Assembly (NCBI GenBank): GCA_964447125.1
Contig: CAYUSL010000001.1
Location: forward strand, 1 to 55,250
Origin: an uncultured bacterium
GTDB taxonomy: Bacteria > JADJOY01
Reading direction: 5' to 3'
DNA length: 55,250 bases
Of this stretch, positions 1,247 to 31,023 are shown in pieces; within the stretch, counting starts at the first letter, position 1, and every line of letters starts with the position of its first letter. The notes under the pieces were generated by a model. That model was not told the origin of the DNA and did no database searches. It saw nothing but the letters and a program-made list of their open reading frames with translations. The position numbers and the translations under genes were made by a program.

Positions 1247-2668
1247 TTGCGAATGAGCCACGTCATTCCACACGTTCCGACGGACAACGTCTACTTCGAC
1301 CCTGTCGATGGGCGTGCGCCGCTCATCCTCGGCACCAACGATTTTCATTCCATCACCGAAGCGGTTGCCGCGCCGATCGAGAATCGTGCGCCGTTCGGCT
1401 GGTGGGTTTGTCTGGCGGTGGCACTCGGGCTGCTGGCCGTGTTCGGCCTCTCCATTGCCTGGCTCTTCTGGGAGGGGGTGGGGATCTGGGGCGTGATGGT
1501 CCCGGTGGGTTGGGGCTTCGCGATCGTCAACTTCGTCTTCTGGGTCGGAATCGGCCACGCAGGAACCCTGATCTCGGCCGTTCTTTTCTTGTTTCGGCAG
1601 CATTGGCGGACGTCGATCAACCGCTCCGCGGAAGCCATGACGCTGTTCGCCGTCATGTGCGCGCTGGTGTTTCCGGGAATCCACGTCGGCCGCGTGTGGG
1701 TGGCGTACTGGATGTTTCCGCTGCCCAATCAGATGGGTATGTGGCCGAATTTCCGGAGCCCGCTGCTGTGGGACGTGTTCGCCGTGAGCGTCTACGGCAC
1801 CGTCTCGGCGCTCTTCTGGTACGTGGGCCTCGTCCCGGACTTGGCTACGTTTCGTGATCGCGCCACCACCAAGGTCCGCAAGATCGCGTACGGAGTGTTT
1901 GCGCTGGGCTGGCGCGGCTCGGCGCGCCATTGGCAGCACTACGAGTCTGCGTACCTGATCCTGGCCGCGCTCGCGACGCCGCTGGTGCTCTCTGTCCACT
2001 CGATCGTGTCGATGGACTTCGCCGTGTCGCAGCTCCCCGGCTGGCACACGACGATCTTCCCGCCCTACTTCGTGGCGGGTGCGATCTTCTCCGGCTTCGC
2101 GATGGTGACCACGCTGATGCTCATCACGCGCGTCGCCTTCAAGCTCGAGCACATCGTGACCATGCGTCACCTCGAGAACATGGCGAAGATCATGCTGCTG
2201 ACCGGCTCGCTGGTCGGCTACGCGTACGGCATGGAGTTTTTCATCGCCTGGTTCAGCGGCTCTCCGTACGAGCAGTTCATCTTCATCAATCGCGCCTTCG
2301 GCCCGTACAAGTGGGCCTACTGGATCATGATCTCCTGCAACGTGCTGTCGCCGCAGGTCTTCTGGTTCAAGAAGCTGCGCACCAGCGTACCGGTGCTGTT
2401 CGTCATGTCGATCACGATCAACATCGGGATGTGGTTCGAGCGTTTCGTGATCGTGGCGTCGTCGCTACACCGCGACTTCCTGCCGTCGAGCTGGGGCTAC
2501 TACACGCCCACGTTCTGGGACTTCGCGACGCTCGCGGGCAGTTTCGGGCTCTTCTTCACGATGTTCTGCCTGTTCGTACGCTTCCTGCCGATGGTCGCGA
2601 CAGCCGAGGTCAAGACCGTGATGCCGGCGGCGCACGTGCACCTCGGCGACGGCCGAGGAGGGCACTGA
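1247..2668 (+). CDS. actC: Alternative complex III subunit ActC (NrfD/PsrC-like polytopic quinol-interacting subunit), copy 1
   Basis: 473-aa ORF that aligns along its full length with the actC of the complete act operon at 31024. Shared strings include [44 protein letters not shown] and [11 protein letters not shown]. The ORF-track start at 1247 is TTG; an in-frame ATG at 1253 is an alternative. Confidence 0.85.
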
Positions 2669-2669
2669 G

Positions 2670-3233
2670 ATGGGGCTGCTCGCGCCATCGCTGCCCGAAG
2701 GCGAGCATTTCGGCGTGCTCGCCGAGCTGCGCTCGCCCCAGGCGCTGGTGGACGCATGCGAGCAAGTGCGTGATGCCGGCTACACACGCTGGGACGCGCA
2801 CACGCCGTTCCCGATCCACGGTCTCGATCGTGCCATGGGGCTGCGGCGCTCCCGGTTGCCGTTCGTGGTGCTCGCGCTCGGCCTGACCGGCGCGGCGGCC
2901 GCGCTCTTGATGCAATGGTGGATGAGCGTCGTCGACTACCCGATCGTGTACAGCGGCAAGCCCTATTTCAGTTGGCCGGCCTTCATCCCGATCGTCTTCG
3001 AGCTGGGGGTGCTTTTCGCTGCGTTCGCTGCGGTATTCGGCATGTTCGGCTTCAATCAGCTTCCCATGCTCTTCCATCCGCTCTTTCACGCCGACCGATT
3101 CGCGCGGGCGAGCGACGACGGCTTCTTCATCTCGATCGAGTCCTGGGACCCACGCTTCGATCCGCACCGCACGGCGGAGTTTCTGCGGGGGCTCGGGGCA
3201 ACGCACGTCGAGCTCGTGCCGCGCCGCGTGTGA
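2670..3233 (+). CDS. actD: ACIII subunit ActD (DUF3341-like membrane subunit), copy 1
   Basis: 187 aa, starting 1 nt after the actC1 stop. It is homologous to the ORF at 32435 (shared: ..A...GY...DA.(T/S)P(F/Y)PI..L..A.G, SWPAFIP..FE..VLFAAFAAVFGM). Position and size match actD. Confidence 0.8.
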   Translation: MGLLAPSLPEGEHFGVLAELRSPQALVDACEQVRDAGYTRWDAHTPFPIHGLDRAMGLRRSRLPFVVLALGLTGAAAALLMQWWMSVVDYPIVYSGKPYFSWPAFIPIVFELGVLFAAFAAVFGMFGFNQLPMLFHPLFHADRFARASDDGFFISIESWDPRFDPHRTAEFLRGLGATHVELVPRRV

Positions 3234-3276
3234 CGGTGCGTGGTCGAGTGGCGAGAAGCCGAGGAAACCGCAACTC

Positions 3277-4485
3277 GTGAGCACTGGAGTGCAATCCTTT
3301 CGGGCTGATCGCGTGTCGATCCCTGCCGGCAACGCCTGGGGGCGGTTGCCCGGCATCGGCCTCGGTGTGTTTCTGGTCGGTCTCGTGGCCTCGCTGGCGC
3401 TCGGACGCGGCGATCTGCGGCAGCTCCACTTCTCTTGGCTCGTCGCGTTCCTCTATTTCCTGAGCATCGCGTTGGGTGCGCTTTTCTTCGTGCTGATCCA
3501 CTACATCGCGAAGGCGGGGTGGAGCACGGCCGTGCGCCGCATCGCCGAGAACGCGATGGGCACGCTGCCGCTCTTCGCGGCACTCGTCGTGCCGGTCGTG
3601 ATCGGGATGTCCGAGCTCTTTCCATGGACGGACGCCGAGGTGGTCGCGAAGGACCCGGTACTGCTTTCCAAGCAGCCGTATCTGAACTCGCCGTTCTTCC
3701 TCGGGCGTCTCGCCTTTTATCTGGTCGTGTGGAGCGGGCTGGCGCTCTACTTCGGTCTCGCCTCGCGGCGCCAGGATTCGACCGGCGATCACGCGATCAC
3801 GCGCCGTCTGCAGATGGCCGCGGCGCCGGGGCTCTTCCTGTTCGCGGTCTCGATCACGTTCGCGGCGATCGACTGGATCATGTCGCTCGATCCGCACTGG
3901 TATTCGACGATCTTCGGCCTCTACTACTTCGCTGGTGCGGTGGTGGCGGCCCACGCGTTCATCGCCATCGTCACCGTCGGCTTGCACCGTAGCGGGCTGG
4001 TCACGGGGGTGTTCACCACCGACCACTTTCACGATCTGGGCAAGTTGCTGCACGGATTCACGGTGTTCTGGACCTACATCGGCTTTTCGCAATTCTTTCT
4101 CATTTGGTACGCGAACATCCCGGAAGAGACGATCTGGTTTCGTCACCGGCTGATGGGCTCGTGGAAGTCCGTCACCATCGCCCTCGCCTTCGGTCATTTC
4201 GTGATTCCATTCTTCGCGATCATGGCGCGCACCGTGAAGCGCAACCCCACGCTGCTTCGGCTGGGTGCGATCTGGATGCTGGCGATGCACTACCTGGATC
4301 TCTACTGGCTCGTCATGCCGAACCTGCACGAACACGGATTCGCACCGACCCTGCTCGATCTCGCCACCTGGCTCGCCGTCGGTGGTGCGTTCGTGGCGAC
4401 TTTCGGATTCAATCTGACCCGCGCGGCACTCGTTCCGATCCGAGATCCGCGTTTGCCCGAGTCTTTGAGCTACGAAAATGCGTGA
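3277..4485 (+). CDS. actF: ACIII subunit ActF (second NrfD-like membrane subunit), copy 1
   Basis: 402 aa with a GTG start. It is homologous to the actF at 33590 (shared: AA(I/V)DW(I/V)MSL(D/E)PHW(Y/F)STIFG, HFHDL(G/A)KLL, Q(F/Y)(F/L)(L/I)IW(Y/S)(A/G)N(I/L)PEE). It follows actD1 directly with a 43-nt gap and no actE between them. Confidence 0.8.
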   Translation: MSTGVQSFRADRVSIPAGNAWGRLPGIGLGVFLVGLVASLALGRGDLRQLHFSWLVAFLYFLSIALGALFFVLIHYIAKAGWSTAVRRIAENAMGTLPLFAALVVPVVIGMSELFPWTDAEVVAKDPVLLSKQPYLNSPFFLGRLAFYLVVWSGLALYFGLASRRQDSTGDHAITRRLQMAAAPGLFLFAVSITFAAIDWIMSLDPHWYSTIFGLYYFAGAVVAAHAFIAIVTVGLHRSGLVTGVFTTDHFHDLGKLLHGFTVFWTYIGFSQFFLIWYANIPEETIWFRHRLMGSWKSVTIALAFGHFVIPFFAIMARTVKRNPTLLRLGAIWMLAMHYLDLYWLVMPNLHEHGFAPTLLDLATWLAVGGAFVATFGFNLTRAALVPIRDPRLPESLSYENA

Positions 4486-4519
4486 ATCTCAACGCTCGAT
4501 CCGAGGAGGAACATCCATC

Positions 4520-5233
4520 ATGGTGCGTACGCGCGTTCTCGGCATGGTTGCAGCCGCTCAATCGTTGTGCGTCGGTGTCGCTCTCGCCGGCACCATCCAA
4601 GGATCGGTGAGCTACTCCGGAGCCGTCCCCAATCTCAAGCCGGTGTCGATGGACGCAGACCCGACCTGCGCAGCGAAGCATTCGAGCCCGGTGCCCAACG
4701 ACATTCTCGTGCTCGGTGACGCGAACGCGCTCGGCAACGTAGCCGTGAGTGTCGAGTCCGGCCTGCCCGCAGGGAAGACATACCCCGCACCCGCCGGTGC
4801 CGCGGAGATCGACCAGGACGGCTGCATGTACTCTCCCCACGTGCTGGGAATTCAGATGGGCCAAGCACTGAAGTTCAAGAATACCGATGCGATCCTTCAC
4901 AACGTTCACGCGTTGCCGCAGCTCAACAAGGAATTCAACCTGGCGATGCCGGGCAACGTGAAGGAGAAAGAAGCTAGTTTCCCCAAGGAAGAAGGCTTCT
5001 TCAAAGTGAAATGTGACGTGCATCCGTGGATGAACGCCTACGTGCGCGTTTACGCTCATCCTTATTTCAGCGTCACGGCCAAGGATGGCAAGTTCAAGAT
5101 CGAGAACGTGCCCGCCGGAACCTACGAGCTCAGCGCCTGGCACGAGAAGCTCGGCACCCAGAAGCAGTCGGTCACCATCGCCGAGGGCGAGACGAAGAAC
5201 CTCACGTTCACGTTCAGCGCGCCGGGTAAGTGA
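4520..5233 (+). CDS. Secreted type-1 copper (cupredoxin) protein with an amicyanin-like ligand loop, flanked by carboxypeptidase-regulatory-like beta-sandwich segments
   Basis: ATG at 4520 is preceded by GAGGAGGA (4503-4510). Signal-peptide-like N-terminus MVRTRVLGMVAAAQSLCVGVALAG. Copper ligand motifs are ILHNVHAL (compare amicyanin MPHNVHFV) and KCDVHPWM (compare amicyanin HCTPHPFM, C-x2-H-P-x-M). The C-terminal segment GKFKIENVPAGTYELSAWHEKLG is CarboxypepD_reg-like. Confidence 0.7.
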   Translation: MVRTRVLGMVAAAQSLCVGVALAGTIQGSVSYSGAVPNLKPVSMDADPTCAAKHSSPVPNDILVLGDANALGNVAVSVESGLPAGKTYPAPAGAAEIDQDGCMYSPHVLGIQMGQALKFKNTDAILHNVHALPQLNKEFNLAMPGNVKEKEASFPKEEGFFKVKCDVHPWMNAYVRVYAHPYFSVTAKDGKFKIENVPAGTYELSAWHEKLGTQKQSVTIAEGETKNLTFTFSAPGK

Positions 5234-5338
5234 CACGCGTCCAGGGCGGGGGCGACGCGTGACGCTCACGCGGCGCGCTGGGCTTGCTGGTCGTCGAAAC
5301 ATTCCTCGATCGCCACGTTTGAAGGGGAGAAGCGCCTG

Positions 5339-7111
5339 ATGAGCTCGTCGCATGGGCACCAAGGGAGTGCGGGCGGTGGTCACGGCGATGCCGAGCACCA
5401 CGAGCTCGGGTTCTGGCGGAAGTACGTCTTCTCCACGGACCACAAGGTGATCGGAATCCAGTACGGGCTCACGGCGCTGACGTTCCTGTTCTTCGGCTTC
5501 TGCTTGATGATGCTGATGCGGTGGCAGCTCGCCTTTCCGGGAAAGCCGCTGCCCTTCGGGCTCGGCAAGCTCTTCAGCGATGCGGTGATGCCGGGCGGGG
5601 CGATGGCGCCGGACTTCTACAACCAGCTCGGCGCCATGCACGGAACCATCATGGTGTTCCTCGGCGTGGTGCCGCTGGGTGTCGGCGCGTTCGGCAACTT
5701 CGTGCTGCCGCTGCAGATCGGCGCGCCGGACATGGCGTTCCCGCGCATCAACATGGCCAGCTACTGGGTCTATGCAATGGGCGGCATCGTCATGCTGGCG
5801 AGCTTCTTCCTCCCCGGTGGTGCGGCGCAGTCCGGCTGGACGTCGTATCCGCCGCTCTCCGACATTTCGCCGGGCCAGACGTCGTGGCTCGTGGGAATGA
5901 TCTTTCTCATCACCTCGTCCTTGCTCGGCTCGATCAACTTCATCGTCACCACGATTCAGCTCCGTGCCAAGGGCCTCACGTTCATGCGCTTGCCGTTCTT
6001 CGTGTGGGCGCAGCTCGTGACGGCCTTCCTATTGTTGCTCGCGTTTCCGCCGCTCGAGGCCGCCGGCATCCTCCAGCTCATGGACCGCGTGGCGGGAACG
6101 AGCTTCTTCCTGCCGAGCGGGCTGGTCGTGAGCGGCAAGATGCTGAACGTGAGTGGCGGTGGAAGCCCGCTGCTCTGGCAGCATCTCTTCTGGTTCTTGG
6201 CTCACCCCGAGGTTTACGTGTTGATCCTTCCGGCGATGGGGATCGTCGCGGAGGTCGTCGCGAACAACACGCGCAAGCCGCTCTGGGGCTATCGAGCGAT
6301 GGTGTATGCGGTGATCTTCCTCGGGTTCATGTCGTTCGTGGTGTGGGCGCATCACATGTTCATCACGGGCATGGGGAGCGTGATGGCGGCCTTCTTCCAG
6401 ACCACCACGATGATCATCTCGATCCCTTCGGTGATCGTGTTGACGGCCTTCTTCGTGTCGCTGTGGGGCGGCTCGATCCGCTTCACCACCCCGATGCTCT
6501 TCGCGCTCGCGTTCCTGCCGATGTTCGGAATCGGTGGGCTCACGGGATTGCCGCTGGGCTTGTCGTTTCCGGACATTCACCTGCACGACACGCTCTACGT
6601 CATCGGTCACTTTCACTACGTGGTGGCGCCGGGAACGATCTTCGCGTTGTTCGCAGGCGTCTACTACTGGTTCCCGAAGGCAACCGGCCGGCGCATGAGC
6701 GAGTCGCTCGGCAAGCTGCACTTCTGGCCGTCATTCGTGTTCATGAATGGCATCTTCTTCCCCATGTTCATCCAGGGGCTGGCCGGCATGTCCCGCCGGA
6801 TGGCGGACGGTGGCGAGACGTACGCGCACGTGGCCCACTACCTGTATCTGAACAAGGTGATGTCGTTTTCCGCCTGGGGGCTCGCGCTTTCCCAGATCCC
6901 ATTCATGATCAATCTCGCGAAGAGCATTCGCGGTGGCGAAAAGGTTTCCGACAACCCGTGGGATGCAACGACGCTCGAATGGGCGGCTCCATCGCCGCCG
7001 CCCCACGGAAACTTCTTGACCCTTCCCGAGGCGCATCGCGGCCCTTACGAGTACAGCGCGCCGGGACGCAAGACCGATTTCTTCCCGCAATTCGACCCGG
7101 CAAGGGGGTGA
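5339..7111 (+). CDS. ctaD: Heme-copper oxidase subunit I, A1-type (D-channel Glu present)
   Basis: 590 aa, with the RBS GAAGGGGAGAAG upstream. Motifs: WFLAHPEVYVLILPAMG (the HPEV glutamate marks the A1 type), VWAHHMF (CuB HH), GHFHYV (heme a/a3 His pair) and DMAFPR. Confidence 0.9.
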   Translation: MSSSHGHQGSAGGGHGDAEHHELGFWRKYVFSTDHKVIGIQYGLTALTFLFFGFCLMMLMRWQLAFPGKPLPFGLGKLFSDAVMPGGAMAPDFYNQLGAMHGTIMVFLGVVPLGVGAFGNFVLPLQIGAPDMAFPRINMASYWVYAMGGIVMLASFFLPGGAAQSGWTSYPPLSDISPGQTSWLVGMIFLITSSLLGSINFIVTTIQLRAKGLTFMRLPFFVWAQLVTAFLLLLAFPPLEAAGILQLMDRVAGTSFFLPSGLVVSGKMLNVSGGGSPLLWQHLFWFLAHPEVYVLILPAMGIVAEVVANNTRKPLWGYRAMVYAVIFLGFMSFVVWAHHMFITGMGSVMAAFFQTTTMIISIPSVIVLTAFFVSLWGGSIRFTTPMLFALAFLPMFGIGGLTGLPLGLSFPDIHLHDTLYVIGHFHYVVAPGTIFALFAGVYYWFPKATGRRMSESLGKLHFWPSFVFMNGIFFPMFIQGLAGMSRRMADGGETYAHVAHYLYLNKVMSFSAWGLALSQIPFMINLAKSIRGGEKVSDNPWDATTLEWAAPSPPPHGNFLTLPEAHRGPYEYSAPGRKTDFFPQFDPARG

Positions 7112-7117
7112 GCGAGC

Positions 7118-7708
7118 ATGCAGATCCCGTACACCGTCGAGCCCCGGCCGGATACCGGGCTGACGAATGGGAAGATCGGTATCTGGCTCTTCCTCGCGTC
7201 CGAGGTGATGCTCTTCGGCGGCCTGTTCGCGGCTTACATCATGCTGCGCGTGGGAGCCTCGGAATGGCCGGCCGGCAGGACGATCCTGAACATCAAGATG
7301 GCGTTCACCAACACGCTGGTGCTGATCAGCTCCAGCATCACGGTGGTGTTGGCCTGGGCGTCCCTGGTGCGTCGTGATCTCGGTGGTTTTCGACGCTGGA
7401 TGGGAATCACGATCCTCTGCGGTTGCATCTTCCTGGTCATCAAGTACTTCGAGTACACGACCAAGTTTCACCACGGTCTCTATCCACGCACGAATACCTT
7501 CCTCGCGATCTACTTCACGCTGACTGGCCTACACGGCTTGCACGTGATCGGGGGGATGGCGGTCAACTCGTACCTGCTGGGGCCGGGATCGAAGCTCTTC
7601 GCGACCGATCCCCAGTGGTTCACGAATCGGGTCGAGAACGCGGGGCTCTTCTGGCACCTGGTCGACTTGGTTTGGATCTTCCTGTTTCCAGTTCTCTACC
7701 TGCTCTGA
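7118..7708 (+). CDS. ctaE: Cytochrome c oxidase subunit III
   Basis: 196 aa, 6 nt after the subunit I stop. It shows FL.SEVMLFGGLFAAY, TG.HG.HV.GG and [14 protein letters not shown], all typical of subunit III. It is paralogous to the ORF at 38757. Confidence 0.85.
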   Translation: MQIPYTVEPRPDTGLTNGKIGIWLFLASEVMLFGGLFAAYIMLRVGASEWPAGRTILNIKMAFTNTLVLISSSITVVLAWASLVRRDLGGFRRWMGITILCGCIFLVIKYFEYTTKFHHGLYPRTNTFLAIYFTLTGLHGLHVIGGMAVNSYLLGPGSKLFATDPQWFTNRVENAGLFWHLVDLVWIFLFPVLYLL

Positions 7709-7724
7709 TCTCAGGGGAGGCGAC

Positions 7725-8105: not shown

Positions 8106-8113
8106 GCGTCGCC

Positions 8114-8317
8114 GTGAACCTGAAAGGCTTCCACGTGGTGTTCATCGTCGTCGCCACGCTCACCGTGCTCGGCTTCGGTGCCTGGGGCATCTCGGTGGGA
8201 CGCAGCACGAGCGACGCTGGAATGACCTTGCTCGGTGGAGTGTCCGCCGCGGCAGGTGTGGCCCTGTTGGCGTACGGTGGCTGGTTCCTGCGAAAGCTGC
8301 GAGGTGGGTTGTCGTGA
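8114..8317 (+). CDS. Small two-helix membrane protein, function unknown
   Basis: 67 aa, GTG start, two hydrophobic spans (VVFIVVATLTVLGFGAWGI and LLGGVSAAAGVALLAYGGWFL). It is packed between oxidase genes and overlaps the next ORF by 4 nt. Confidence 0.4.
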   Translation: MNLKGFHVVFIVVATLTVLGFGAWGISVGRSTSDAGMTLLGGVSAAAGVALLAYGGWFLRKLRGGLS

Positions 8318-8592
8318 ACCTCGTGCGCAGGCACCTCTCGATCGGGCTGGTCGCCGCTTTCCTGGTGGTGGCCGGTGCGACCGCGTCGTGGGCTTGCCCG
8401 GCCTGCTACGCCGAGGCCGAGGGGCCACTCATCGACGCCGCGCGGGTGGGCGCCTGGCTCCTGATCGGCGTGGTGGCGTCGATGTGGCTCGGGTTTCTCA
8501 CGTTCTTCGTCTATTTGGCGCGGCGAGCGCGGCGGTTCGCCGCTGAGCCGGTCGGGCAAGCGATGGTGGCGGCAGGCGAGGGCGCGGCCTAG
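8314..8592 (+). CDS. Small membrane protein with an exposed CPAC (CxxC) motif, function unknown
   Basis: 92 aa, GTG start. It has an N-terminal hydrophobic segment, then WACPACYAEAEG, then a second helix and a basic tail. It overlaps the preceding small ORF by 4 nt and lies 17 nt upstream of subunit II. Confidence 0.45.
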   Translation: MNLVRRHLSIGLVAAFLVVAGATASWACPACYAEAEGPLIDAARVGAWLLIGVVASMWLGFLTFFVYLARRARRFAAEPVGQAMVAAGEGAA

Positions 8593-8609
8593 ATCGCGCG
8601 GAGGATCGG

Positions 8610-9413
8610 ATGCACGAGTGGCTGTCTCTACCGGAGCTCGCGTCCGAGCATGGTGCGAAAGTCGATCAAGTCATCAGCTACGTCCACGTGCTGATGGCGA
8701 TTCTGTTCGTGGGATGGGGAGCGTTCTTCGTCTACACGCTCATCCGCTTTCGCGCCAGTGCCAATCCGAAGGCCGATTACGTCGGCGTGACGGGCCACAA
8801 GAACACGTATCTGGAAGTCGCGGTGGCGCTGGTCGAAGCCGTGTTGTTGATCGGGTTCTCGATACCCCTGTGGTCGGTGCGGGTGGACAAGTTCCCCGCG
8901 GAGAAAGAGGCCGTGGTGGTTCGCGCGGTAGCGGAGCAGTTCGCCTGGAACTTCCACTACCCTGGCGCCGACGGGGTGTTCGGCCACACCGATCCCCGTT
9001 TCGTCGATGCGCAGACCAACCCCGTCGGCCTCGACCCAGACGATCCGCACGGCAAGGACGACATCACCACGGTGAATCAGCTTCATCTGCCGGTGAACAA
9101 GCCGGCGATCGTTCGGCTCAGCAGCAAGGACGTCATCCACAGCTTCGCGCTCTGGGAGATGCGCGTGAAGCAGGATGCGGTTCCCGGGATCGAGTCTCCG
9201 CTCTGGTTCGAGCCGACGGTGACCACCGAGGAGATGCGCAAACGTACGGGCGATCCCAAGTTCACGTACGAGATCGGTTGCGCCCAGCTCTGCGGGCTCG
9301 GCCACTACCGCATGCGCGGCTTCGTCACGATCGACGACTCGGCGGGCTTCGATCACTGGCTCGCGGAGCAGGCACCAAAGCCTGGTGAAGGCGGCGACGA
9401 ATTCTGGGGTTGA
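8610..9413 (+). CDS. ctaC: Cytochrome c oxidase subunit II (CuA) without a fused cytochrome c domain
   Basis: 267 aa with a GGAGGA RBS. It has two N-terminal helices and the CuA ligands VIHSF ... CAQLCGLGHYRM (H, C-x3-C-x3-H-x2-M). No CxxCH motif is present. Confidence 0.85.
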   Translation: MHEWLSLPELASEHGAKVDQVISYVHVLMAILFVGWGAFFVYTLIRFRASANPKADYVGVTGHKNTYLEVAVALVEAVLLIGFSIPLWSVRVDKFPAEKEAVVVRAVAEQFAWNFHYPGADGVFGHTDPRFVDAQTNPVGLDPDDPHGKDDITTVNQLHLPVNKPAIVRLSSKDVIHSFALWEMRVKQDAVPGIESPLWFEPTVTTEEMRKRTGDPKFTYEIGCAQLCGLGHYRMRGFVTIDDSAGFDHWLAEQAPKPGEGGDEFWG

Positions 9414-9458
9414 GCGGAACGCGTCCGTCGGTGCTTCGCAGGGGCGTGGTTTGCCGCG

Positions 9459-10832: not shown

Positions 10833-10839
10833 GCAGCTC

Positions 10840-12155: not shown

Positions 12156-12170
12156 GCGTGTGCCGCGAGG

Positions 12171-15117: not shown

Positions 15118-15152
15118 GAACCCTCCGAACCCTTGCGCACGCACGCGCCGGT

Positions 15153-17647: not shown

Positions 17648-17689
17648 GGGGCGTGCTCTCGGTCCTTCGTCGTTGCGACTCGCAGCTGG

Positions 17690-18181
17690 TCAGTCCGCCT
17701 TCGATCGGTGCTTGTGCGTGGTCTTGAGCGTCACGTTGGGCGTGCCGCCCTGGCTCTGAAGCCAGGCCATGACGGCGAGGATTTCTTCGTCCGTGAGGCC
17801 GATTGGCGGCTTGTTGATGGTCGGCATGCCTTTGTTGAAGCCGGGCACGATGTAGGCATCCGGCTCGTAGAGCGATTCGGAGAAGTAGTCGATGTCGCTG
17901 TAGCCCGGCTTGCGCGTCTTGGCGCGTTCGCCGACACCTTGCAGATCGGGATAGCGGAGCGCACCCGTCTTGCCGATGGTGTGACAGGTCAGGCACATGC
18001 CTTTGTCGTGGGCGATCTCGTCGCCGATCTTCACGAGATCGGCGGTGGTCATGTCCTTGGTGATCTTCACGTCCGCTGGTGGCTGAAGTTCCTTCTGCGG
18101 CACGAGCTGCCCGACGTACGTGTAGAAACCCGTCGTTGCCACCACCAAGACCAGCACGTTGACCACCGGCGGCACCTTCAC
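17690..18181 (-). CDS. Membrane-anchored monoheme cytochrome c
   Basis: 163 aa. The GTG start overlaps the cydA-like stop as GTGA. It has one N-terminal helix, CLTCH, and a downstream GMP (Met ligand candidate) ... EEILAVMAWL. Confidence 0.75.
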   Translation of the reverse strand: MKVPPVVNVLVLVVATTGFYTYVGQLVPQKELQPPADVKITKDMTTADLVKIGDEIAHDKGMCLTCHTIGKTGALRYPDLQGVGERAKTRKPGYSDIDYFSESLYEPDAYIVPGFNKGMPTINKPPIGLTDEEILAVMAWLQSQGGTPNVTLKTTHKHRSKAD

Positions 18182-20037
18182 GCGGCACCTCCGTGGGGGC
18201 CGTGCCCGGTGCCGCCCTCACGGTTTCCCCAATCGGGGGCGTGCGAGAGGCTCGCGAGCCAGAACACCATGCCGATCAGCGCAAAGAAGATCAGCACGGT
18301 GACCGATACGACCTTGGTCGCGAAACCGAGTGTCGGGGTGAAGGCGTCGACCGAGGTGTCGCGGATGACACCATAGACGTGCCAGTGCTGGCGCAGACCG
18401 GAGCGCACGTAGCCCATGAGCCCCATGAGCCACGTGAACGTGACCGCGATGAAGATCAGGATGTATTGAGAGAGCGGGGGCATGCGCCCCCAGCGCGTCT
18501 CACCCGTCGACTGCGCACCGCGATAGAGCGGCACGTCGATGACGGTGATGCTCACCATTGCCGCCAACACCGCGAGCACCTGGTACGCCGAGTAGCCGAT
18601 TCGCACCTTCGCTTCGACGAAATAGCCGTGAATGCCGAAGAAGATCACCCACGCGGCAGCGGCGAAGAAGAGCGCGAATTGGATGAGGTTTGCCGTGGTC
18701 GCCCACGGTTGCACCGAGCGCTTTCCGCTGCGCCTGTAGAGCAGGAAGCTCATGAACGTCGTCAGGATGAGGATGTTCACCGCAGTGTTCTTCGCCGACA
18801 TCACGCCGAGGAAGCCGAGCATCGGATGCGTCGATCCGCGCATCGCCTTCACTTCCGACGCCGTGGAGATGATCGAGCGGGGCGTGGCCCACACCGCGAA
18901 GCACAGCGCGATCGTGATGAGCAGGTACTTGATGAATTTCTGGAACGGCTGCGCGCCCTCGATTCGTCCCATGCCCAGCCACAGATAGGCGTTGGCTGCG
19001 AGGAACAAGTTGCCGATGAGCACCGCCTGGATGATGAAGAGCCATGAGAACGCTCCGCCCATCATCATGATGCCGAGTGCCTGGTTGAAGCCGTAGATCT
19101 CGCGCGCCAGGTAGTAACCGGCGAAGGGCAGAGGCAGGAACGCCAGGATGGCCACGAAGTTGCCGATGTAGCCCATCCAGTCGTAATGGGCGCGCTCTTC
19201 GTCGGTCTTGGCTCCCAGGTATTGGAACGCCGCATACGCCGCCGCGACCGAACCGCCGAACGCGACGTTGGCGATGAGGCGGTGAACGTTGATGGGCATC
19301 CAGGTGAAGTTCATCGCGGCTTCCATCACGTTCAACACCGCGCCGGAGTCGGAAACGCCGGCGGGCGACATCATGAACGAGACCCACGAGTTCGCGATGA
19401 ACATGATCGCGGTGCCCACCAGGTTGAGGCCCACGCCGAGGCCGATGTGCACCAGCGGATGAAACTTTCCCCAGCCGTAGTAGTAGCTGTAGAGGAAGAA
19501 CGCTTCCGCGAAGAAGAGCCCGACGTAAGGCGCGAAGGTCGGGCTGAAGACGCTCATCAAGTAAGTCGTGAACTTCGGATAGAGCGCGATCAGCAGGAAC
19601 GTCAGCATCGCGCCGAAGGTGGCGGTGATCGAGAACGACACCGACAAGAGCTTCGTGAACTCGTACGCGAGCCGGTCGTAACGTGTGTCCTTGGTGGCGT
19701 AGCCGATGATCTCGATGATGATCGCGAACATCGGCACCGCGAGCACGAACGCGGCGAAGAGCAGGTGAAGCTGCGCTGCCACCCACACGGCGACTCGGCT
19801 GCCGACCACCGGGAACTTGCGGTACTCGACTTCCTTGTAAGGCGTGGCCTTGGCGTCGGCCGCTTGCTTCTGGGCGAGGTCGTGCTCGGCTTGCTGGCGC
19901 GGCGTCGTCGCCTCGCTGAGGCCGCGCGTCGGTGGGTGGTAGGCGCGGTGCTCGAGCTGCATCCAGACGCCCACGAGCGAGCCGAGCCCGAGCACCACGG
20001 CGATCACCGCCATCGGCACGAGCACGCGAGGCTTCAC
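18178..20037 (-). CDS. Cytochrome bd superfamily subunit-I-like (CydA-like) protein, about 14 helices, no Q-loop-sized insert
   Basis: The start is trimmed to the GTG at 20037, which has GGAGAG 3 nt upstream and overlaps the actE1 stop as GTGA; the ATG at 20013 is an alternative. The segment VWVAAQLHLLFAAFVLAVPMFAIIIEIIGY...LLSVSFSITATFGAMLTF...YVGLFFAEAFFLYSYYYGWGKF...NVHRLIANVAFGGSVAAAYAAFQYL is colinear with CydA helices 1-5. It includes the helix-1 His and helix-5 His positions and a Glu aligned with E. coli E107. No hydrophilic stretch longer than about 30 aa occurs after helix 1. Confidence 0.75.
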   Translation of the reverse strand: MKPRVLVPMAVIAVVLGLGSLVGVWMQLEHRAYHPPTRGLSEATTPRQQAEHDLAQKQAADAKATPYKEVEYRKFPVVGSRVAVWVAAQLHLLFAAFVLAVPMFAIIIEIIGYATKDTRYDRLAYEFTKLLSVSFSITATFGAMLTFLLIALYPKFTTYLMSVFSPTFAPYVGLFFAEAFFLYSYYYGWGKFHPLVHIGLGVGLNLVGTAIMFIANSWVSFMMSPAGVSDSGAVLNVMEAAMNFTWMPINVHRLIANVAFGGSVAAAYAAFQYLGAKTDEERAHYDWMGYIGNFVAILAFLPLPFAGYYLAREIYGFNQALGIMMMGGAFSWLFIIQAVLIGNLFLAANAYLWLGMGRIEGAQPFQKFIKYLLITIALCFAVWATPRSIISTASEVKAMRGSTHPMLGFLGVMSAKNTAVNILILTTFMSFLLYRRSGKRSVQPWATTANLIQFALFFAAAAWVIFFGIHGYFVEAKVRIGYSAYQVLAVLAAMVSITVIDVPLYRGAQSTGETRWGRMPPLSQYILIFIAVTFTWLMGLMGYVRSGLRQHWHVYGVIRDTSVDAFTPTLGFATKVVSVTVLIFFALIGMVFWLASLSHAPDWGNREGGTGHGPHGGAA

Positions 20038-20633
20038 GGGCTCTCCTGGCGCTCGAGCTCGCGCACGAAGGCAACGATCGCCCAGCGGTCTTGGGTCGGC
20101 ACGGGCCAGCGGTAGGACGGCATCAGCCCCGAACCGTTCGTGATCACGTCGAAGAGCTGACCGTCCGGCATGTTCACGATCTTGTCGGAGTGCATGCTGG
20201 GCGTCGGCACGTTTCCGCGCTCGTAGAGAATGCCTTTGCCCGTGCCGCGGCTGTCGTGGCACGGCGCGCAGTAGATCGCGAAGCGATCGCGCCCGCGTGC
20301 AACGACCGTGGCGTCGTTGCCGATCGGGTTGGTCGCGACGAAGGCACCGCCGACGTCCTTACCCGTGTGGATCGTGGGATTCACGTGCAGCTCGCCACGG
20401 GCGATTGTCCCAGGCACGGGTGGGCGCATCGTTCCGCCGTCGTAAAAGAAGGCACTCTCGGACTGGGGGTCGTAGCGCGGCTGATAATCCATGCTGGGAT
20501 TCAGGTGGATCGGCTCCCGGCTCGAGGTGCAGCCGCGCGCGCAGCCGCTCGAGGCCAGCGCCAGCGACGCGACGCCGAGGCAGGTGGCGATCCACGCGCA
20601 CCGGCGTCGCAAGGTGAGTTGCTCTCGGCGCAT
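20034..20633 (-). CDS. actE: ACIII subunit ActE (lipoprotein monoheme cytochrome c), copy 1
   Basis: The start is trimmed to the ATG at 20633, 4 nt after the actB1 stop. It has the lipobox LASSGC and CAPCH. It aligns with the actE at 32961 (RF.IYC.PCHD..G.GKG... FDVI..G.G.MP.Y...P..DRWAI.A). Confidence 0.8.
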   Translation of the reverse strand: MRREQLTLRRRCAWIATCLGVASLALASSGCARGCTSSREPIHLNPSMDYQPRYDPQSESAFFYDGGTMRPPVPGTIARGELHVNPTIHTGKDVGGAFVATNPIGNDATVVARGRDRFAIYCAPCHDSRGTGKGILYERGNVPTPSMHSDKIVNMPDGQLFDVITNGSGLMPSYRWPVPTQDRWAIVAFVRELERQESP

Positions 20634-20637
20634 GCGC

Positions 20638-23600
20638 TCAGGCCTTGTCGAGATCCGGATTGGGATTCCGGATGCGCGCGAGGTACGAGGTGCGCGGCTT
20701 GGTGTTGAGCTCGGCGAGCAGGTCGTAGTTGCGCGGGCTGGTCTTCGCGACGGCGACGCGGCTCTTCGGGTCGCGGATGTCGCCGAACTCGATCGCGCGC
20801 GCAGGGCAAGCCTGCTGGCAGGCCGTGCGGACGTCACCGTCGGCGAGCGCCCGGTTCTCGAGCTTCGCCTGTTGCCGGCCGGCGCTGATTCGCTGCAGAC
20901 AGTACGTGCATTTTTCCATCACGCCGCGTGCCCGAACCGTGACGTTCGGATTCATCGCCATCTTCAGCGTTTCGGGCGTGTCTTTGGTGAAGTTGTAATA
21001 GTTGAAGCGCCGCACCTTGTACGGACAGTTGTTCGAGCAATAACGCGTACCGATGCAGCGGTTGTAGACCATGGCGTTGAGGCCGTGATCGTCGTGCACG
21101 GTCGCAGCCACCGGACACACCTGCTCGCAAGGCGCGTTCTCGCATTGCATGCAGGGAATGGGCTGGACGACCATCGCTTCCGGGTCGTCGGGATCGCCGC
21201 GGAAGTAGCGGTCGACGCGGATCCAATGCAGCTCGCGACCTCGGCGCACTTGGTCGCGGCCGACTGCAGGGATGTTGTTCTCCGCCTGGCACGCCGTGAC
21301 GCAGGCGTTGCAGCCGGTACAGACGTTCAAGTCGATGGTCATGCCCCATTGGGGGCCGTCCGCGTACGCGCGCTCCTGCCACAACGATTCCAGCGGCGGG
21401 TGCTCGACCATCTCCTTGGCGAACTCGGGCTCGTGCTGGAACTCCGCGAGGGTCGCCTCGCGAATCAACGTGGGGACACGTCGATCGCGTTCCTTCGCAC
21501 CGAGCTCGTCGATGATCCAATGATCCTGGGTGATGGCCAGCTCTGCGGTGCGGCTCAGTCGCTCGATTCGCGCTGAAGCCGCTCCCGCCAGGGTCTTCGT
21601 GGTTCGCAGGCGATACGCATCGGCCCCGACCATCGATCCGACCCGCCCGGCGGCCTCGCGGCCGTAACCGAGCGCGATCGTGACGGTGTGCTCGGCCTGA
21701 CCCGGGCTGATCACCACGGGGATCTCGATCTTCGCGTCGCCGACGGCGATGACCACCAGGTCTTCGTCGGTCACGCCCAATGCGCGTGCCGTTGCATAGC
21801 TCAGGAGTGCGGCGTTGCCCCAAGTGAGCTTGGTGGTCAGGTCGGGTAGCTCTTGCAGCCAAGAGATGTTGGCGAATCGGCCGTCGTAGACGGTGAACGA
21901 CGGCACGAACGTCAGCTCGATCGCTTCTGCCGTGGGCGGAGGAAGCGAGTCCGTGAGCGTTGCCGGCGCGGCGGCTCCTGCAGGAAGCGACTCGAGCTCG
22001 TTGGCAGTCGCGCTCGCTTCGAGCAGGCCGTCGTGCAGCACCCGTTCCCAGCGCGAATCGAGCTCGGAGTCGCCGAGGATGCCGCGCCAGGTTTCGCGCA
22101 CGAGGTCGTAGCCACTCGTGAGCTCCGCCTTTGCTGGGTCGGCGGCGAACGCGCCGAGCAGCTCGGCGACGGAACGGGCGCCGTGCAGCGGCAGCACGAG
22201 CGGCTGCACCACGCTGAGCGTGCCGTCGGCTGCGGCCGCGTCACCCCAGCTCTCCAGGAAATGAGCGAGCGGCAGGTGCCAGTGGGCGAGGGCTGACGTC
22301 TCGTCGACTTTCGCGCCAGCACGAATACACGTGGTCACTTTGGCGACGGCCTTCGTGAAGTCGAGGTCGCTCGGGGCGTCGTACGCGGGATTCCCGCCGA
22401 GGATCACGAGCGTGGAGACCTCACCCGACTGGATCGCCGAGACCAGCGCCGTCAGCTCGCCGAGCACCGAACGCGCGGCATGCCGGGGTGCCCTGTGGGT
22501 GAGCGTGGTTCCGAGATTGCCGAGGGCGGCGTTGATCGCGAGCACCCACGCATGGACGGCCGGTGGTAGATGGGCGCCAGCCACGACCACGCTGCGTCCG
22601 CGATTCGCCAGCAGATCTTTCGCCGCAGCAGCGATCCAACGTGCATCGACGTCTTCGCCTGAAACAGCCGGTGCCCCGAGACCAAGCTCGCGCGCCAGCA
22701 GTGCGACGACCGCAGGCATGCGACCGCGGCGCAATCGCAAGCGATGATCGGCGAGGCCGCCGGTGGCTGTGAAAGAGCTTTCGACGACGTAGAGCCGGTT
22801 GAGGTCCGGGGCGCTCGAGGTCTCGTGGTCCGTGGCGGGCAACACAGCGCGCCGGGCCGCGAAACCACCGGTGTTGCGCACCGTTTCGAGATCGGTGCCG
22901 AACGGATCGGCGTCGATGGCCACCACCACTCGGGCGCGTTGGTAATCGACGAGCGCTTCGAGCGCGCGCCCCGTGACGGCGGCGACTGCGCTCCGCTGGT
23001 GCTCGTCGCTGAGCGGCTCGTAGGTCGCCCAGCGCGCTCGCGGATAGACCTCGAGGAAGCGCGTCCGCAGGCGCGCGAGCGTCGGCGACGTGAATGGCTC
23101 GCCCAGCACTGCGAGGCCCGCGCCCTCGCTGGCACGCAGCGATGCCGCTTGGCTGCGCCAGAACCCGTCGAAATCCGTCCAGCTCGAGGGCGCACCGCTC
23201 TTGCGCACCGGACCGGCGCGATCGGGATCGTAGAGATCGTAGATTGCGGCCTGCATCCACGCGCTCGAAGCGCCGCGGGTCGCTGGATGCAGCTCGTTCC
23301 CTTCGATCTTGGTGGGCCGCCCCTCGTGGCTCTCGACGACCAGCCCGTAGGCACTCCTGCCGAACGGCATGGTGGTGGCGTAGCGGCGTGGCACGCCGGG
23401 CAGGATCTCTTCCGGCGGCTTGACGTACGGAACGATCTTTTCGAGTGGGCGGCGACACGCGGTCAGCCCCGCGATCGAGAGCGTCGCTCCCGTGAGCCCG
23501 AGCATGTGCCGTCGCGAGACGACGTCGGGCGGTGAATCAGCTCCCGCTGGAAACTCGGGCGAAGCCGCGCTCTCTGCGCCGCGTGAGGATTCGAGTGCCG

Positions 23601-23652
23601 CGACGCTGCGCCAGTAGGCGGCGCTTCGCGCGGGGCCTGGTGAGCTCGTCAT
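20638..23652 (-). CDS. actB: ACIII subunit ActB (molybdopterin-oxidoreductase-like domain plus Fe-S ferredoxin domain), copy 1
   Basis: About 1004 aa. The ATG at 23652 overlaps the actA1 stop as ATGA, the same arrangement as in copy 2. It has the Tat-like SRRHMLGLTGATLSIAGLTAC. Fe-S motifs are CTGCNACVTACQAEN, CMQCENAPCEQVCP, CIGTRYCSNNCPYKVRRFN, CTYCLQRI and ACQQACP. It is colinear with the ActB at 27970. Confidence 0.9.
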   Translation of the reverse strand: MTSSPGPARSAAYWRSVAALESSRGAESAASPEFPAGADSPPDVVSRRHMLGLTGATLSIAGLTACRRPLEKIVPYVKPPEEILPGVPRRYATTMPFGRSAYGLVVESHEGRPTKIEGNELHPATRGASSAWMQAAIYDLYDPDRAGPVRKSGAPSSWTDFDGFWRSQAASLRASEGAGLAVLGEPFTSPTLARLRTRFLEVYPRARWATYEPLSDEHQRSAVAAVTGRALEALVDYQRARVVVAIDADPFGTDLETVRNTGGFAARRAVLPATDHETSSAPDLNRLYVVESSFTATGGLADHRLRLRRGRMPAVVALLARELGLGAPAVSGEDVDARWIAAAAKDLLANRGRSVVVAGAHLPPAVHAWVLAINAALGNLGTTLTHRAPRHAARSVLGELTALVSAIQSGEVSTLVILGGNPAYDAPSDLDFTKAVAKVTTCIRAGAKVDETSALAHWHLPLAHFLESWGDAAAADGTLSVVQPLVLPLHGARSVAELLGAFAADPAKAELTSGYDLVRETWRGILGDSELDSRWERVLHDGLLEASATANELESLPAGAAAPATLTDSLPPPTAEAIELTFVPSFTVYDGRFANISWLQELPDLTTKLTWGNAALLSYATARALGVTDEDLVVIAVGDAKIEIPVVISPGQAEHTVTIALGYGREAAGRVGSMVGADAYRLRTTKTLAGAASARIERLSRTAELAITQDHWIIDELGAKERDRRVPTLIREATLAEFQHEPEFAKEMVEHPPLESLWQERAYADGPQWGMTIDLNVCTGCNACVTACQAENNIPAVGRDQVRRGRELHWIRVDRYFRGDPDDPEAMVVQPIPCMQCENAPCEQVCPVAATVHDDHGLNAMVYNRCIGTRYCSNNCPYKVRRFNYYNFTKDTPETLKMAMNPNVTVRARGVMEKCTYCLQRISAGRQQAKLENRALADGDVRTACQQACPARAIEFGDIRDPKSRVAVAKTSPRNYDLLAELNTKPRTSYLARIRNPNPDLDKA

Positions 23653-24311
23653 CGATGGCACCCCGAGCAGTCGACGGGAGGCTCTAGGTGCTTCTCGGCG
23701 ATGATCCGTTCGCCGGCGCTGCGCTGATCAGGCGGCGCCTGCCAGCGCATGTTCGTCACCTGCTCGGTAGGACGCAGGTGTGGCGCTGGATCGCGATGGC
23801 AGTCGAGGCACCAACTCATGCTGAGAGGCTCGGCTTGCGTGACGACCTCCATCTGATCGACGCGACCGTGGCATTCGACGCAGCCGACACCTGCGCGCAC
23901 GTGCATTGCGTGATGGAAGAACGCGAAGTCCGGCAGGTTGTGCACGCGCACCCACTGCATGGGCTGGCCGGATGCGTAGCTGGCACGGATGGGCGCCAGA
24001 AGCGCGCTATCGCGTTTCACCACCGCGTGGCAGTTCATGCAGACCTGCGTGGGTGGAACGTTCGCAACCGCCGATCGCTCGACCGACGCGTGACAGTACT
24101 TGCAGTCGATGCCGAGATCGCCGGCGTGCAAGCGATGACTGTACGGGACCGGCTGTCGGGGGGCGAAGCCGACGTCCGTGTAACGCGGCGAGAAGTAGTA
24201 CCAGACGACGCCGATGATCAGGGTCGTGGCGACGAGACCACCGGCCGCCAATGCCAGCGCGGCTCGATTGCTCGATTCCGGAAACACCTGCGCCAAGCGC
24301 TCGACCCCCAA
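23649..24311 (-). CDS. actA: ACIII subunit ActA (membrane-anchored pentaheme cytochrome c), copy 1
   Basis: Five CxxCH motifs (CKYCH, CMNCH, CVECH, CLDCH, CSGCH) and one N-terminal helix. The ORF-track start at 24311 is TTG. A TTG at 24296 would give MAQVF..., parallel to the MAQIF... of copy 2, so the start is uncertain. Confidence 0.85.
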   Translation of the reverse strand: MGVERLAQVFPESSNRAALALAAGGLVATTLIIGVVWYYFSPRYTDVGFAPRQPVPYSHRLHAGDLGIDCKYCHASVERSAVANVPPTQVCMNCHAVVKRDSALLAPIRASYASGQPMQWVRVHNLPDFAFFHHAMHVRAGVGCVECHGRVDQMEVVTQAEPLSMSWCLDCHRDPAPHLRPTEQVTNMRWQAPPDQRSAGERIIAEKHLEPPVDCSGCHR

Positions 24312-30993: not shown

Positions 30994-31023
30994 CGGGCGC
31001 ACGCCGCCGAGTGAGCACGCGAG

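Follow-up and report, generated by a model that had tools for sequence, protein, structure and literature searches.

One of the ACIII gene sets in the 55,250-nt stretch of DNA analyzed here (the window), hereafter copy 1, is divided between two operons, with actC-D-F at 1253-4485 on the plus strand and actA-B-E at 24311-20034 on the minus strand, instead of forming the single contiguous actABCDEF cluster characteristic of ACIII. The cut follows the module boundary of the complex exactly, and each half is accompanied by a different O2-reducing enzyme: in the cryo-EM structure of R. marinus ACIII, ActA, B and E constitute the electron-transfer module and ActC, D and F the membrane module (PMC5928083). 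An earlier note on this DNA had proposed that one ACIII gene set was split in this way, and that core reading is upheld by PDB matches and distance trees. Judging from the sequences, it is somewhat probable that the products of both operons form a single ACIII, which would supply the two oxidases with electrons.

In the plus operon (1253-9413), the genes for ActC, ActD and ActF are followed by those for a putative blue-copper protein and an aa3-type oxidase:

1253..2668, plus strand: actC1, NrfD-like quinol-binding membrane subunit (alternative TTG start at 1247; Pfam NrfD, 2.9e-22)
2670..3233, plus strand: actD1 (PF11821 ActD, 6.7e-68; two hydrophobic segments)
3277..4485, plus strand: actF1, second NrfD-like membrane subunit (PDB 6f0k_F, 5.9e-95)
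4478..5233, plus strand: cupredoxin-like protein, membrane-anchored or secreted (likely start ATG 4520)
5339-7111, plus strand: coxI (PF00115, 3e-133; TIGR02891 CtaD, 1.1e-175)
7118-7708, plus strand: coxIII (PF00510)
7725-8105, plus strand: coxIV (PF03626)
8114..8592, plus strand: two small membrane proteins of 67 and 92 aa (hydrophobic segments; homologues at the same position in relatives)
8610..9413, plus strand: coxII with CuA ligands and without a cytochrome c domain (PF00116, TIGR02866)

The presence of actC, actD and actF, read earlier from the letters, is borne out by the Pfam and PDB matches; ActC1 is 66% identical to R. marinus ActC (PDB 6f0k_C, 2.6e-200), and a protein identical to it from the start at 1253 is already on record (P0121). 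Other details of the earlier description hold as well: at the expected position of actE, between actD1 and actF1, there is no such gene, only a gap of 43 nt (3234-3276); neither actA nor actB is present upstream of actC1, where an intergenic region of 414 nt (put at about 400 bp before) separates it from a divergent MlaE-like gene (832->1; PF02405, 3.2e-39); and none of the 10 products of the operon contains a CxxCH motif. The oxidase is of the A-type haem-copper (aa3) kind, with CoxI, CoxIII, CoxIV and a CoxII whose CuA motif, H...CAQLCGLGHYRM, is read from the sequence.

The ORF of the cupredoxin-like protein overlaps actF1, and its product carries a CarboxypepD_reg beta-sandwich at the C-terminal end. 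Its matches to amicyanin (TIGR02657, 6.6e-5) and PF00127 (0.0073) are weak, both being under their cut-offs, and a single-sequence AlphaFold model (pLDDT 39.6) is too low in confidence for a fold call; the H..C-x2-H-x2-M ligand motif is kept in 35/35 homologues. The gene occurs in the ActCDF-cox operons of all loci extending far enough, and no cupredoxin match was seen in the unsplit act operons, where a caa3-type CoxII is found instead.

The minus operon (24311-9459) contains the complementary actA, actB and actE, all three identified as claimed, and continues with a bd-like oxidase of the OR-N2 type, three cytochrome c proteins and a Usp/GNAT/Mrp/radical-SAM tail:

23649..24311, minus strand: actA1, pentahaem cytochrome c with an N-terminal TM helix (5 CxxCH; PDB 6f0k_A, 1.6e-72; one TM segment)
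20638..23661, minus strand: actB1, TAT-exported molybdopterin-like and four-cluster Fe-S subunit (PDB 6f0k_B, 4.6e-271; TIGR04519 TAT-variant signal)
20034..20633, minus strand: actE1, monohaem lipoprotein cytochrome c (1 CxxCH; lipobox LASSGC; PDB 6f0k_E, 3.3e-47)
18178..20037, minus strand: bd-like oxidase subunit of 619 aa, CydA homologue, OR-N2-like (PF01654, 1.6e-22)
18181-17690, minus strand: anchored monohaem cytochrome c (Pfam/NCBIfam, CxxCH counts)
17647-16826, minus strand: 4-TM monohaem cytochrome c (Pfam/NCBIfam, CxxCH counts)
16829-15153, minus strand: dihaem cytochrome c fused to an EbdC-like haem b domain (EB_dh/TIGR03477; CxxCH counts)
~15150-13063, minus strand: Usp/PCP_red protein (Pfam)
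13016-12171, minus strand: GNAT acetyltransferase (Pfam)
12155-11280, minus strand: MrpORP-like Fe-S carrier (profile matches)
11283-10840, minus strand: PCP_red protein (profile matches)
10832-9459, minus strand: radical SAM/SPASM protein, AhbD/NirJ2-like, with a PCP_red tail (profile matches)

The GTG start of the bd-like gene overlaps the actE1 stop. The bd-like subunit has thousands of homologues, of which the 120 listed are 71-79% identical, besides two near-identical entries. With its CydA-homologous core, its extra helices and the accompanying cytochromes c and EbdC-like haem b subunit, the module matches the published description of the OR-N2 family, the placement being made by description. 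Like OR-N2 (Murali et al. 2021) and the Nitrospirota TO_1 oxidase (Yu et al. 2022), it has a CydA homologue with many more helices than canonical CydA; 14 helices are reported for OR-N2, and a crude scan finds at least 11 hydrophobic segments in the subunit encoded here. The published descriptions of OR-N2 operons (Murali et al. 2021) and TO_1 (Yu et al. 2022) include no ACIII parts, whereas in the Acidobacteriota considered here the bd-like gene is separated from the promoter by an inserted actA-B-E. For TO_3/TO_4 of Ca. Manganitrophus noduliformans, a bd-like oxidase with complex III or ACIII-like components has been proposed (PMC9040806): here as there, genes for a bd-like oxidase go together with some of those for a quinol-oxidizing complex, but the NrfD-type membrane part lies here outside the bd-like operon, with the second oxidase.

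The split is old, common and recurrent in many Acidobacteriota MAGs, mostly from soil and sediment, and the actCDF/actABE partition was found in every locus of the clade examined. The possibility of a local rearrangement of this genome is thus refuted by the occurrence of the split across Acidobacteriota in several architectures, with the two operons convergent, divergent head-to-head or apart, as the synteny survey suggested in the earlier note has borne out. The constant core of the locus is the radical-SAM/PCP_red/MrpORP trio (80 genome loci kept of 386 encoding a relative), and the GNAT and Usp/PCP_red genes are kept after the bd-like module in relatives. The operons converge in the window and in 15 of the 52 assessable genome loci, as well as in L173, whose visible part of the converging operon is limited to the coxII end; in L090, they diverge from a shared intergenic region of 230 nt. 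The genes actABE precede the bd-like gene in 12 of 13 places with that DNA visible.

These arrangements bear on a rather doubtful alternative, in which the two operons would encode independent complexes: ActABE would serve the OR-N2 bd-like oxidase alone as its electron-input wire, with the ActA helix, the lipid anchors of ActB and ActE and the bd-like or 4-TM cytochrome subunits keeping it at the membrane, and ActCDF with the cupredoxin would work with the aa3 oxidase as a supercomplex that oxidizes quinol or pumps protons and has neither haem c nor Fe-S clusters, the copper protein replacing ActB above the ActC quinol pocket. Consistent with it, the modules are often apart in relatives: around the radical-SAM trio, the bd-like module stands alone in 18 loci, ActCDF-cox alone in 11, and neither is present in 8, and L006 has an ActCDF-cox operon with nothing related nearby. 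Moreover, L005 is syntenic with L174; what it lacks, from between the promoter region common to both and the bd-like gene, is exactly actA-B-E, and it retains the convergent coxII. Whether this reflects a deletion or an insertion, the bd-like module can therefore be maintained in the absence of a linked actABE, as perhaps can ActCDF-cox. The bd-like module that the earlier note placed with actABE is indeed there, with the correction that it belongs with OR-N2 by description and can occur without actABE. The tight packing of each half with its own oxidase (the overlaps actE1/bd-like gene and actF1/cupredoxin ORF), the occurrence of the cupredoxin gene in split operons with no match seen in unsplit ones, and the combinations proposed for Ca. 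Manganitrophus point in the same direction. Against it stands the recurrence of head-to-head and tail-to-tail linkage of the operons.

The residues bearing the function of the subunits speak against it further. The R. marinus structure, with which the background given in the earlier note agrees, shows that the ActB cluster near the quinol site of ActC is the first acceptor of electrons from quinol, and that ActC and ActF contain no cofactor (PMC5928083). All six copy-1 proteins, ActA to ActF, bear the motifs and the profile or PDB matches of ACIII subunits. In ActC1, the quinol pocket is kept (W82, I86, F89, P136, H139, S164, L166, D169, V250 and D253 in R. marinus numbering) together with the coupling residue S245, i.e., 11/11 positions, and in ActB1, 15/15 cluster cysteines align with those of ActB2, including the three-Cys motif C-x5-C-x3-C; in ACIII, this domain of ActB carries one 3Fe-4S and three 4Fe-4S clusters. 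If ActB had been replaced, relaxation or clade-specific change would be expected on the periplasmic face and in the quinol pocket of ActC1; the periplasmic loops are, however, 69% identical to those of unsplit type-1 ActC, equal to the helices, and clade-specific fixed changes were found at 0/89 loop positions. The ActB1 Fe-S domain (75% identical within the split clade), the ActA1 haem domain, ActD1 and ActF1 are as distant from their unsplit type-1 homologues as these are from each other, ActE1 being slightly more distant (41% vs. 45%); the homologues of ActC1 are 76-81% identical. With the quinol pocket, Fe-S cysteines, haems and ActE lipobox intact, no copy-1 subunit appears to have shifted in function. 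The earlier note had left two readings side by side, one ACIII with two terminal oxidases or a recruitment of ActABE to the bd-like subunit with another role for ActCDF; the former is favored because none of the six proteins displays accelerated or redirected divergence, and the latter retains the lower probability given above.

A second ACIII gene set lies next to copy 1 in the window:

27308..39410, plus strand: copy 2, actABCDEFG, SCO1 and caa3 oxidase (best PDB matches 8k9e/6lod)

The complete actABCDEF run at 27308-34789, reported before, is confirmed; an ActG-like gene, SCO1 and the caa3 genes follow. The best PDB matches of copy-2 ActA, B, C and F are Chloroflexi complexes, and those of copy-1 A, B, C, E and F (5/5 tested against PDB) are in R. 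marinus ACIII, so the Chloroflexi-like ACIII of the window is copy 2, not copy 1. The per-subunit phylogenies called for earlier agree: in distance trees (neighbor joining on corrected identities, without bootstrap, with B and E resolving weakly), monophyly is recovered for each of the split A, B, D, E and F clades, and all five adjoin one and the same small group of unsplit "type-1" operons. The 18 such operons, found in a metagenome sample, lie closer to copy 1 in A, C, D and F, and at about the same distance from either copy in B and E. Sequence comparison thus places the copy-1 subunits in one lineage with unsplit, Rhodothermus-like ACIII operons, and the six genes share a common ancestry. 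The idea that copy 1 is a rearranged duplicate of copy 2 is rejected: copy 2, taken earlier to show the ancestral order, belongs to a different, type-2 Chloroflexi-like lineage and is not the template of copy 1.

Copy 2 is the basis of another reading, in which only one true ACIII would exist and one half of copy 1 would either work with copy-2 subunits (e.g., ActCDF1 with ActABE2) or be a drifting remnant. A complete type-2 ACIII-caa3 cluster is indeed next door in the window, and a type-2 cluster directly adjoins one half in L004, L094, L031 and L071. Nevertheless, both halves are under strong purifying selection over wide phylogenetic distances, all cofactor ligands are intact, and copy 2 lacks nothing. 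Since the partner subunits of the two copies are only 35-55% identical, interchangeable interfaces are less likely, and the reading as a whole seems highly improbable.

The closest relative of copy 1 among the known systems is R. marinus ACIII (actABCDEF followed by caa3 genes; PDB 6F0K), which has the same six subunits, the same cofactor motifs and quinol-site residues, and likewise linked oxidase genes. Unlike its single operon, copy 1 occupies two (C-D-F and A-B-E), its linked CoxII lacks the cytochrome c domain, with a cupredoxin-like gene present instead, and a bd-like oxidase accompanies its peripheral half; among the copy-1 genes, no homologue of ActG or ActH was recognized. For the cupredoxin, a precedent is offered by Chloroflexus, whose ACIII reduces the blue-copper protein auracyanin (PMC3150298). 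In the Chloroflexus/Roseiflexus system, the copper protein is the likely acceptor for ACIII and donor for the next complex (PMC3150298), as proposed here, a likeness based on the ligand motif and sub-threshold profile matches; in contrast to auracyanin, the putative copper protein here has its gene within the operon, flanked by actF and coxI, and possesses an extra beta-sandwich domain.

The upstream regions of the two operons have a common box, one per operon, which had been noticed earlier and proved real:

1020..1035, plus strand: CRP/FNR-type palindromic box AGTGACACGAATCACA, ~230 nt upstream of actC1
24403..24418, minus strand: second AGTGA-N6-TCACA box, ~100 nt upstream of actA1

These are the only two matches to TGTGA-N6-TCACA with at most one mismatch in the 55 kb. 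Both are exact as AGTGA-N6-TCACA, each in the sense orientation of its own operon (expected 0.06; 0/100 shuffles reach two, for a variant defined after seeing the matches). In the close relatives L009 and L010, the half-sites of the actC1 box are kept at the same position with different spacers.

The reading of one ACIII assembled from both operons can be put as follows. The copy-1 genes would encode one canonical quinol:electron-acceptor oxidoreductase partitioned along its two structural modules, the membrane module ActC/ActD/ActF providing membrane attachment, quinol binding and proton conduction, and the periplasmic module ActA/ActB/ActE serving as an electron wire. Quinol would be oxidized in the ActC1 pocket, the closest of the ActB1 Fe-S clusters would take up the electrons, and the haems of ActA1/ActE1 would carry them on. 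From there, one branch would lead via the cupredoxin into the aa3 oxidase at its CuA site, by analogy with auracyanin reduction, and the other via the membrane-anchored cytochromes c to the bd-like oxidase. As a precedent, ACIII-oxidase supercomplexes are known (PMC5928083). A single CRP/FNR-type regulator probably controls both operons.

The copy-1 locus might even encode a respirasome of three enzymes, with one ACIII as the physical bridge between the two oxidases and a gene order that mirrors the order of assembly. A bolder version, which we consider unlikely, is that the halves no longer form one ACIII, ActABE having become the built-in electron-input arm of the OR-N2 oxidase and ActCDF making, with the blue-copper protein, an aa3 quinol oxidase that contains neither haem c nor Fe-S clusters. 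If the halves are separate, they would represent two new respiratory enzymes, between which the modules of a common ancestor have been shared out.

One ACIII gene set of the window, referred to as copy 1, is divided between two operons: actC1, actD1 and actF1 reside on the plus strand and the complementary genes, actA1, actB1 and actE1, on the minus strand. A complete act cluster (copy 2) is present in the same window. The earlier note had described this gene content from the sequence, and its description was correct in every particular (gene coordinates, CxxCH counts, the gap, the complete copy).

Features of the split ACIII set and of copy 2
1253-2668, plus strand: actC1 (alternative start TTG at 1247)
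2670-3233, plus strand: actD1
3277-4485, plus strand: actF1
4478-5233, plus strand: cupredoxin-like protein, 251 aa
5339-8105, plus strand: coxI, coxIII, coxIV
8114-8592, plus strand: two small membrane proteins
8610-9413, plus strand: coxII, CuA-type, without a cytochrome c domain
24311-23649, minus strand: actA1, five CxxCH
23661-20638, minus strand: actB1, TAT signal, 15 Fe-S cysteines
20633-20034, minus strand: actE1, lipobox, one CxxCH
20037-18178, minus strand: CydA homologue (bd-like), 619 aa, GTG start overlapping the actE1 stop
3' of the bd-like gene, minus strand: three cytochrome c proteins, one fused with an EbdC-like haem b domain
3' of the cytochrome c genes, minus strand: Usp/PCP_red protein, then GNAT
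ending at 9459, minus strand: MrpORP-like Fe-S carrier, small PCP_red protein, AhbD/NirJ2-like radical SAM/SPASM enzyme
27308-39410, plus strand: complete actABCDEFG-SCO1-caa3 cluster (copy 2)

The plus-strand genes from actC1 to coxII form a tightly packed operon. A spacing of 43 nt separates actD1 from actF1, CxxCH is found in none of the ten products, and 414 nt of intergenic DNA separate actC1 from a divergent MlaE-like gene. A scan for terminators and promoters between the convergent operon ends (9300-9600) detected nothing. The cupredoxin-like protein retains H..C-x2-H-x2-M in 35/35 homologues; its matches to the amicyanin and plastocyanin profiles were both sub-threshold, and its AlphaFold model from a single sequence had an unusably low pLDDT of 39.6. 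The same protein possesses extra Cys/His pairs (C64/H68 and C116/H121, conserved in at least 95% of the 35 homologues), which are candidates for a disulfide or for an additional metal site, and a CarboxypepD_reg beta-sandwich at its C terminus.

The bd-like module of the minus operon matches OR-N2 operons as described in the literature, e.g., in its several cytochromes c and EbdC homologue, and resembles TO_1 of Nitrospirota (Murali et al. 2021; Yu et al. 2022). The paper describing the OR-N2 family left its electron donor open. At the downstream end of the operon (9459-12155) lies a trio of genes for the MrpORP-like Fe-S carrier, the small PCP_red protein (147 aa) and the radical SAM/SPASM enzyme, which carries a PCP_red domain at its C terminus. 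In the window and in loci L009-L088 of relatives, this trio adjoins the bd-like module, the ActCDF-cox operon, both, or neither; our guess is that it serves the maturation of haem or cofactors for the oxidases. The small PCP_red domain, known from the C terminus of protochlorophyllide reductase subunit B, occurs in three proteins of the operon (13063-15150, 10840-11283, 9459-10832), being fused to Usp domains, nearly alone and fused to the radical SAM enzyme, respectively. Divergently from actA1, a SCO1-like protein and a HemY-type protoporphyrinogen/coproporphyrinogen oxidase are encoded (24573-26990, plus strand), and in one relative (L091:7095-8762) a ferrochelatase is added to this pair; the respiratory island is thus accompanied by genes for the handling of haem and copper.

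ACIII comprises two functional modules, one of which (ActA, B, E and others) transfers electrons; a distance of 10-12 A separates the quinol site from the first ActB cluster, and the membrane part is free of cofactors (Sousa et al., PMC5928083); the placement of the quinol site and the lack of membrane cofactors in the earlier note agree with that structure. The gene split matches the cryo-EM modules exactly. We somewhat favor the reading that the two module-wise operons assemble one ACIII, which would deliver electrons via the cupredoxin to the aa3 oxidase and via the cytochromes c to the OR-N2 bd-like oxidase. The reduction of a blue-copper protein by Chloroflexus ACIII is established (PMC3150298), as are ACIII-oxidase supercomplexes in R. 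marinus and F. johnsoniae (PMC5928083). All components belong to known families.

The supposition of a common history for the six copy-1 genes was largely borne out: PDB matches, distances and neighbor-joining (NJ) trees agree, with a weak signal for B and E in the trees, which are distance-based and carry no support values. The R. marinus complex gave the top PDB score for five copy-1 subunits (top/second bit scores: A1 247/218, B1 906/860, C1 670/570, E1 164/112, F1 322/238). For A2, B2, C2 and F2 the top score belonged to the Chloroflexi complexes 8k9e/6lod, and for E2 to R. marinus. Subunit by subunit, the two copies are 35-55% identical. The unsplit comparison set consisted of 70-odd actABCDEF(G)-caa3 operons among the matches listed in a metagenome ActB search, an arbitrary sample of mostly canonical operons that served as an outgroup set and did not amount to a census of the split clade (homologues from split operons). 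In this sample, the "type 2" operons (Chloroflexi-like) are closer to copy 2 in every subunit, and 18 "type 1" operons (Rhodothermus-like) resemble copy 1 more in A, C, D and F, with B and E approximately equidistant. The split clade is monophyletic in the NJ trees for each of A, B, D, E and F, and its sisters are the same few type-1 operons (L093, L098, L105, L135, L153-155, L097, L109); ActC was compared by distance to ActC1 in place of a midpoint-rooted NJ tree. Judged by the PDB scores, the distances to unsplit operons and the NJ sisters, copy 1 descends from a type-1 operon of the Rhodothermus kind, and copy 2 represents another lineage. A duplication of copy 2 followed by rearrangement was rejected as the origin of copy 1, since the copies fall in different ACIII lineages.

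The main rival explanation, that ActABE and ActCDF are two independent, re-purposed modules, seems unlikely to us. A swap of the partner docking on ActC, or re-docking of ActB onto the bd-like subunit, would be expected to leave some asymmetry, and none was found, either in ActC1 loops versus helices or in per-subunit divergence. ActC1 shares 66% identity with its R. marinus counterpart and retains each of the eleven pocket and coupling residues named in the structure paper (PMC5928083). Its periplasmic loops are 69% identical to those of unsplit type-1 ActC, the same as the helices, and 83% identical within the split clade, with no clade-specific fixed change at the 89 loop positions. For the ActB1 Fe-S domain (64% identity to unsplit type-1 homologues, all Fe-S cysteines conserved), the ActA1 haem domain (57%), D1 (47%) and F1 (42%), the distance to these homologues equals the distance among them; E1 is slightly further away (41% vs. 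45%).

Gene organization in relatives bears on both readings. ActC1 and the bd-like protein have thousands of homologues each; the 120 listed for each are, beyond two or three near-identical entries, 76-81% and 71-79% identical, respectively, and the organism-labelled ones among the matches listed are mostly from Acidobacteriota MAGs. Matching contigs by length across the three lists of the best 120 homologues, as a hint of co-occurrence, gave five pairings (74017, 107805, 150934, 23613, 31174), a number too small for statistics. Relatives of the radical SAM protein occurred in 386 genomes (one genome per species searched), of which 80 loci were kept for synteny counts, with both sides assessable in 52. 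The constant core of the 80 is the Mrp-PCP_red-rSAM trio; in 15 of the 52, the trio is flanked by both modules, the bd-like module preceding it and ActCDF-cox converging from the opposite side. The split layout recurs in relatives and is widespread rather than local; most of its carriers are MAGs of Vicinamibacteria, Thermoanaerobaculia and Holophagales. On the 7-Mb contig L090, the two operons stand head-to-head, approximately 230 nt apart (91aa-SCO1-actC-D-F-cupredoxin-cox vs. actA-B-E-bd-like-cytochromes), so the halves are linked in two or more ways, convergent and head-to-head among them. Wherever upstream DNA is visible (the window, L004, L010, L016, L036, L044, L082, L090, L091, L172, L173, L174), actE lies 5' of the bd-like gene, accompanied by actB and actA if the locus extends far enough, with the sole exception of L005. 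On three unrelated contigs (L006, L007, L008), the genes that precede actC-D-F-cupredoxin-coxI-III-IV-(small)-coxII are unrelated and include neither actA nor actB.

Against a single complex count the frequent non-adjacency of the modules (18 loci with the bd-like module only and 11 with ActCDF-cox only, the remaining 8 having neither) and the lack of actA-B-E at L005. This locus is syntenic with L174 (70-79% nucleotide identity) and retains the convergent coxII; what is missing between the bd-like gene and the upstream region common to both loci is exactly actA-B-E (L005:9667-10250 vs. L174:5620-10213). Such a clean presence/absence indicates that actABE behaves as a cassette.

Other arrangements were also encountered. 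A type-2 ACIII-caa3 cluster runs directly into actA1-B1-E1-bd-like in L004 (1-9987) and L094 and into actC1-D1-F1-cox in L031 and L071, forming larger respiratory islands like that of the window; in L012 and L013, actC-D-F follows rSAM on the same strand, not convergently. Fused actC and actD (640-710 aa) occur inside the split operons of several relatives (L089:10001-12136, P0202, P0204, P0229 and others). An apparent ActE-bd-like fusion (P0109) was rejected: its contig, L172, has ActB in several ORFs, typical of frameshift errors.

A related box had been proposed before both operons. Indeed, TGTGA-N6-TCACA at no more than one mismatch has two sites in the window, approximately 230 nt 5' of actC1 and 100 nt 5' of actA1, both reading AGTGA-N6-TCACA on the sense strand of their operon. 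The two close relatives whose DNA upstream of actC1 is available share the half-sites and differ in the spacers; more distant relatives gave no box match. A weaker box, TGTGACCCACGTTACG (27155-27170, 138 nt 5' of actA2), places a related motif at all three act operon starts, at two mismatches, a level at which the total of matches in the window is not above chance.

No prior description of the split was found in the searchable literature, which leaves out most subscription-journal papers. Its parts are annotated in the source records as polysulfide reductase NrfD, hydrogenase subunit and cytochrome bd quinol oxidase, and pipelines seeking a contiguous act cluster may label such genomes "incomplete ACIII". 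The two modules known from the cryo-EM structure of ACIII thus double as units of gene organization and of gain or loss, as the actABE cassette of L174 vs. L005 illustrates. An ACIII electron wire encoded directly before the oxidase gene provides a concrete candidate donor for the bd-like family, and electron branching between a haem-copper and a bd-like oxidase would bear on respiration across O2 gradients in soil MAGs.
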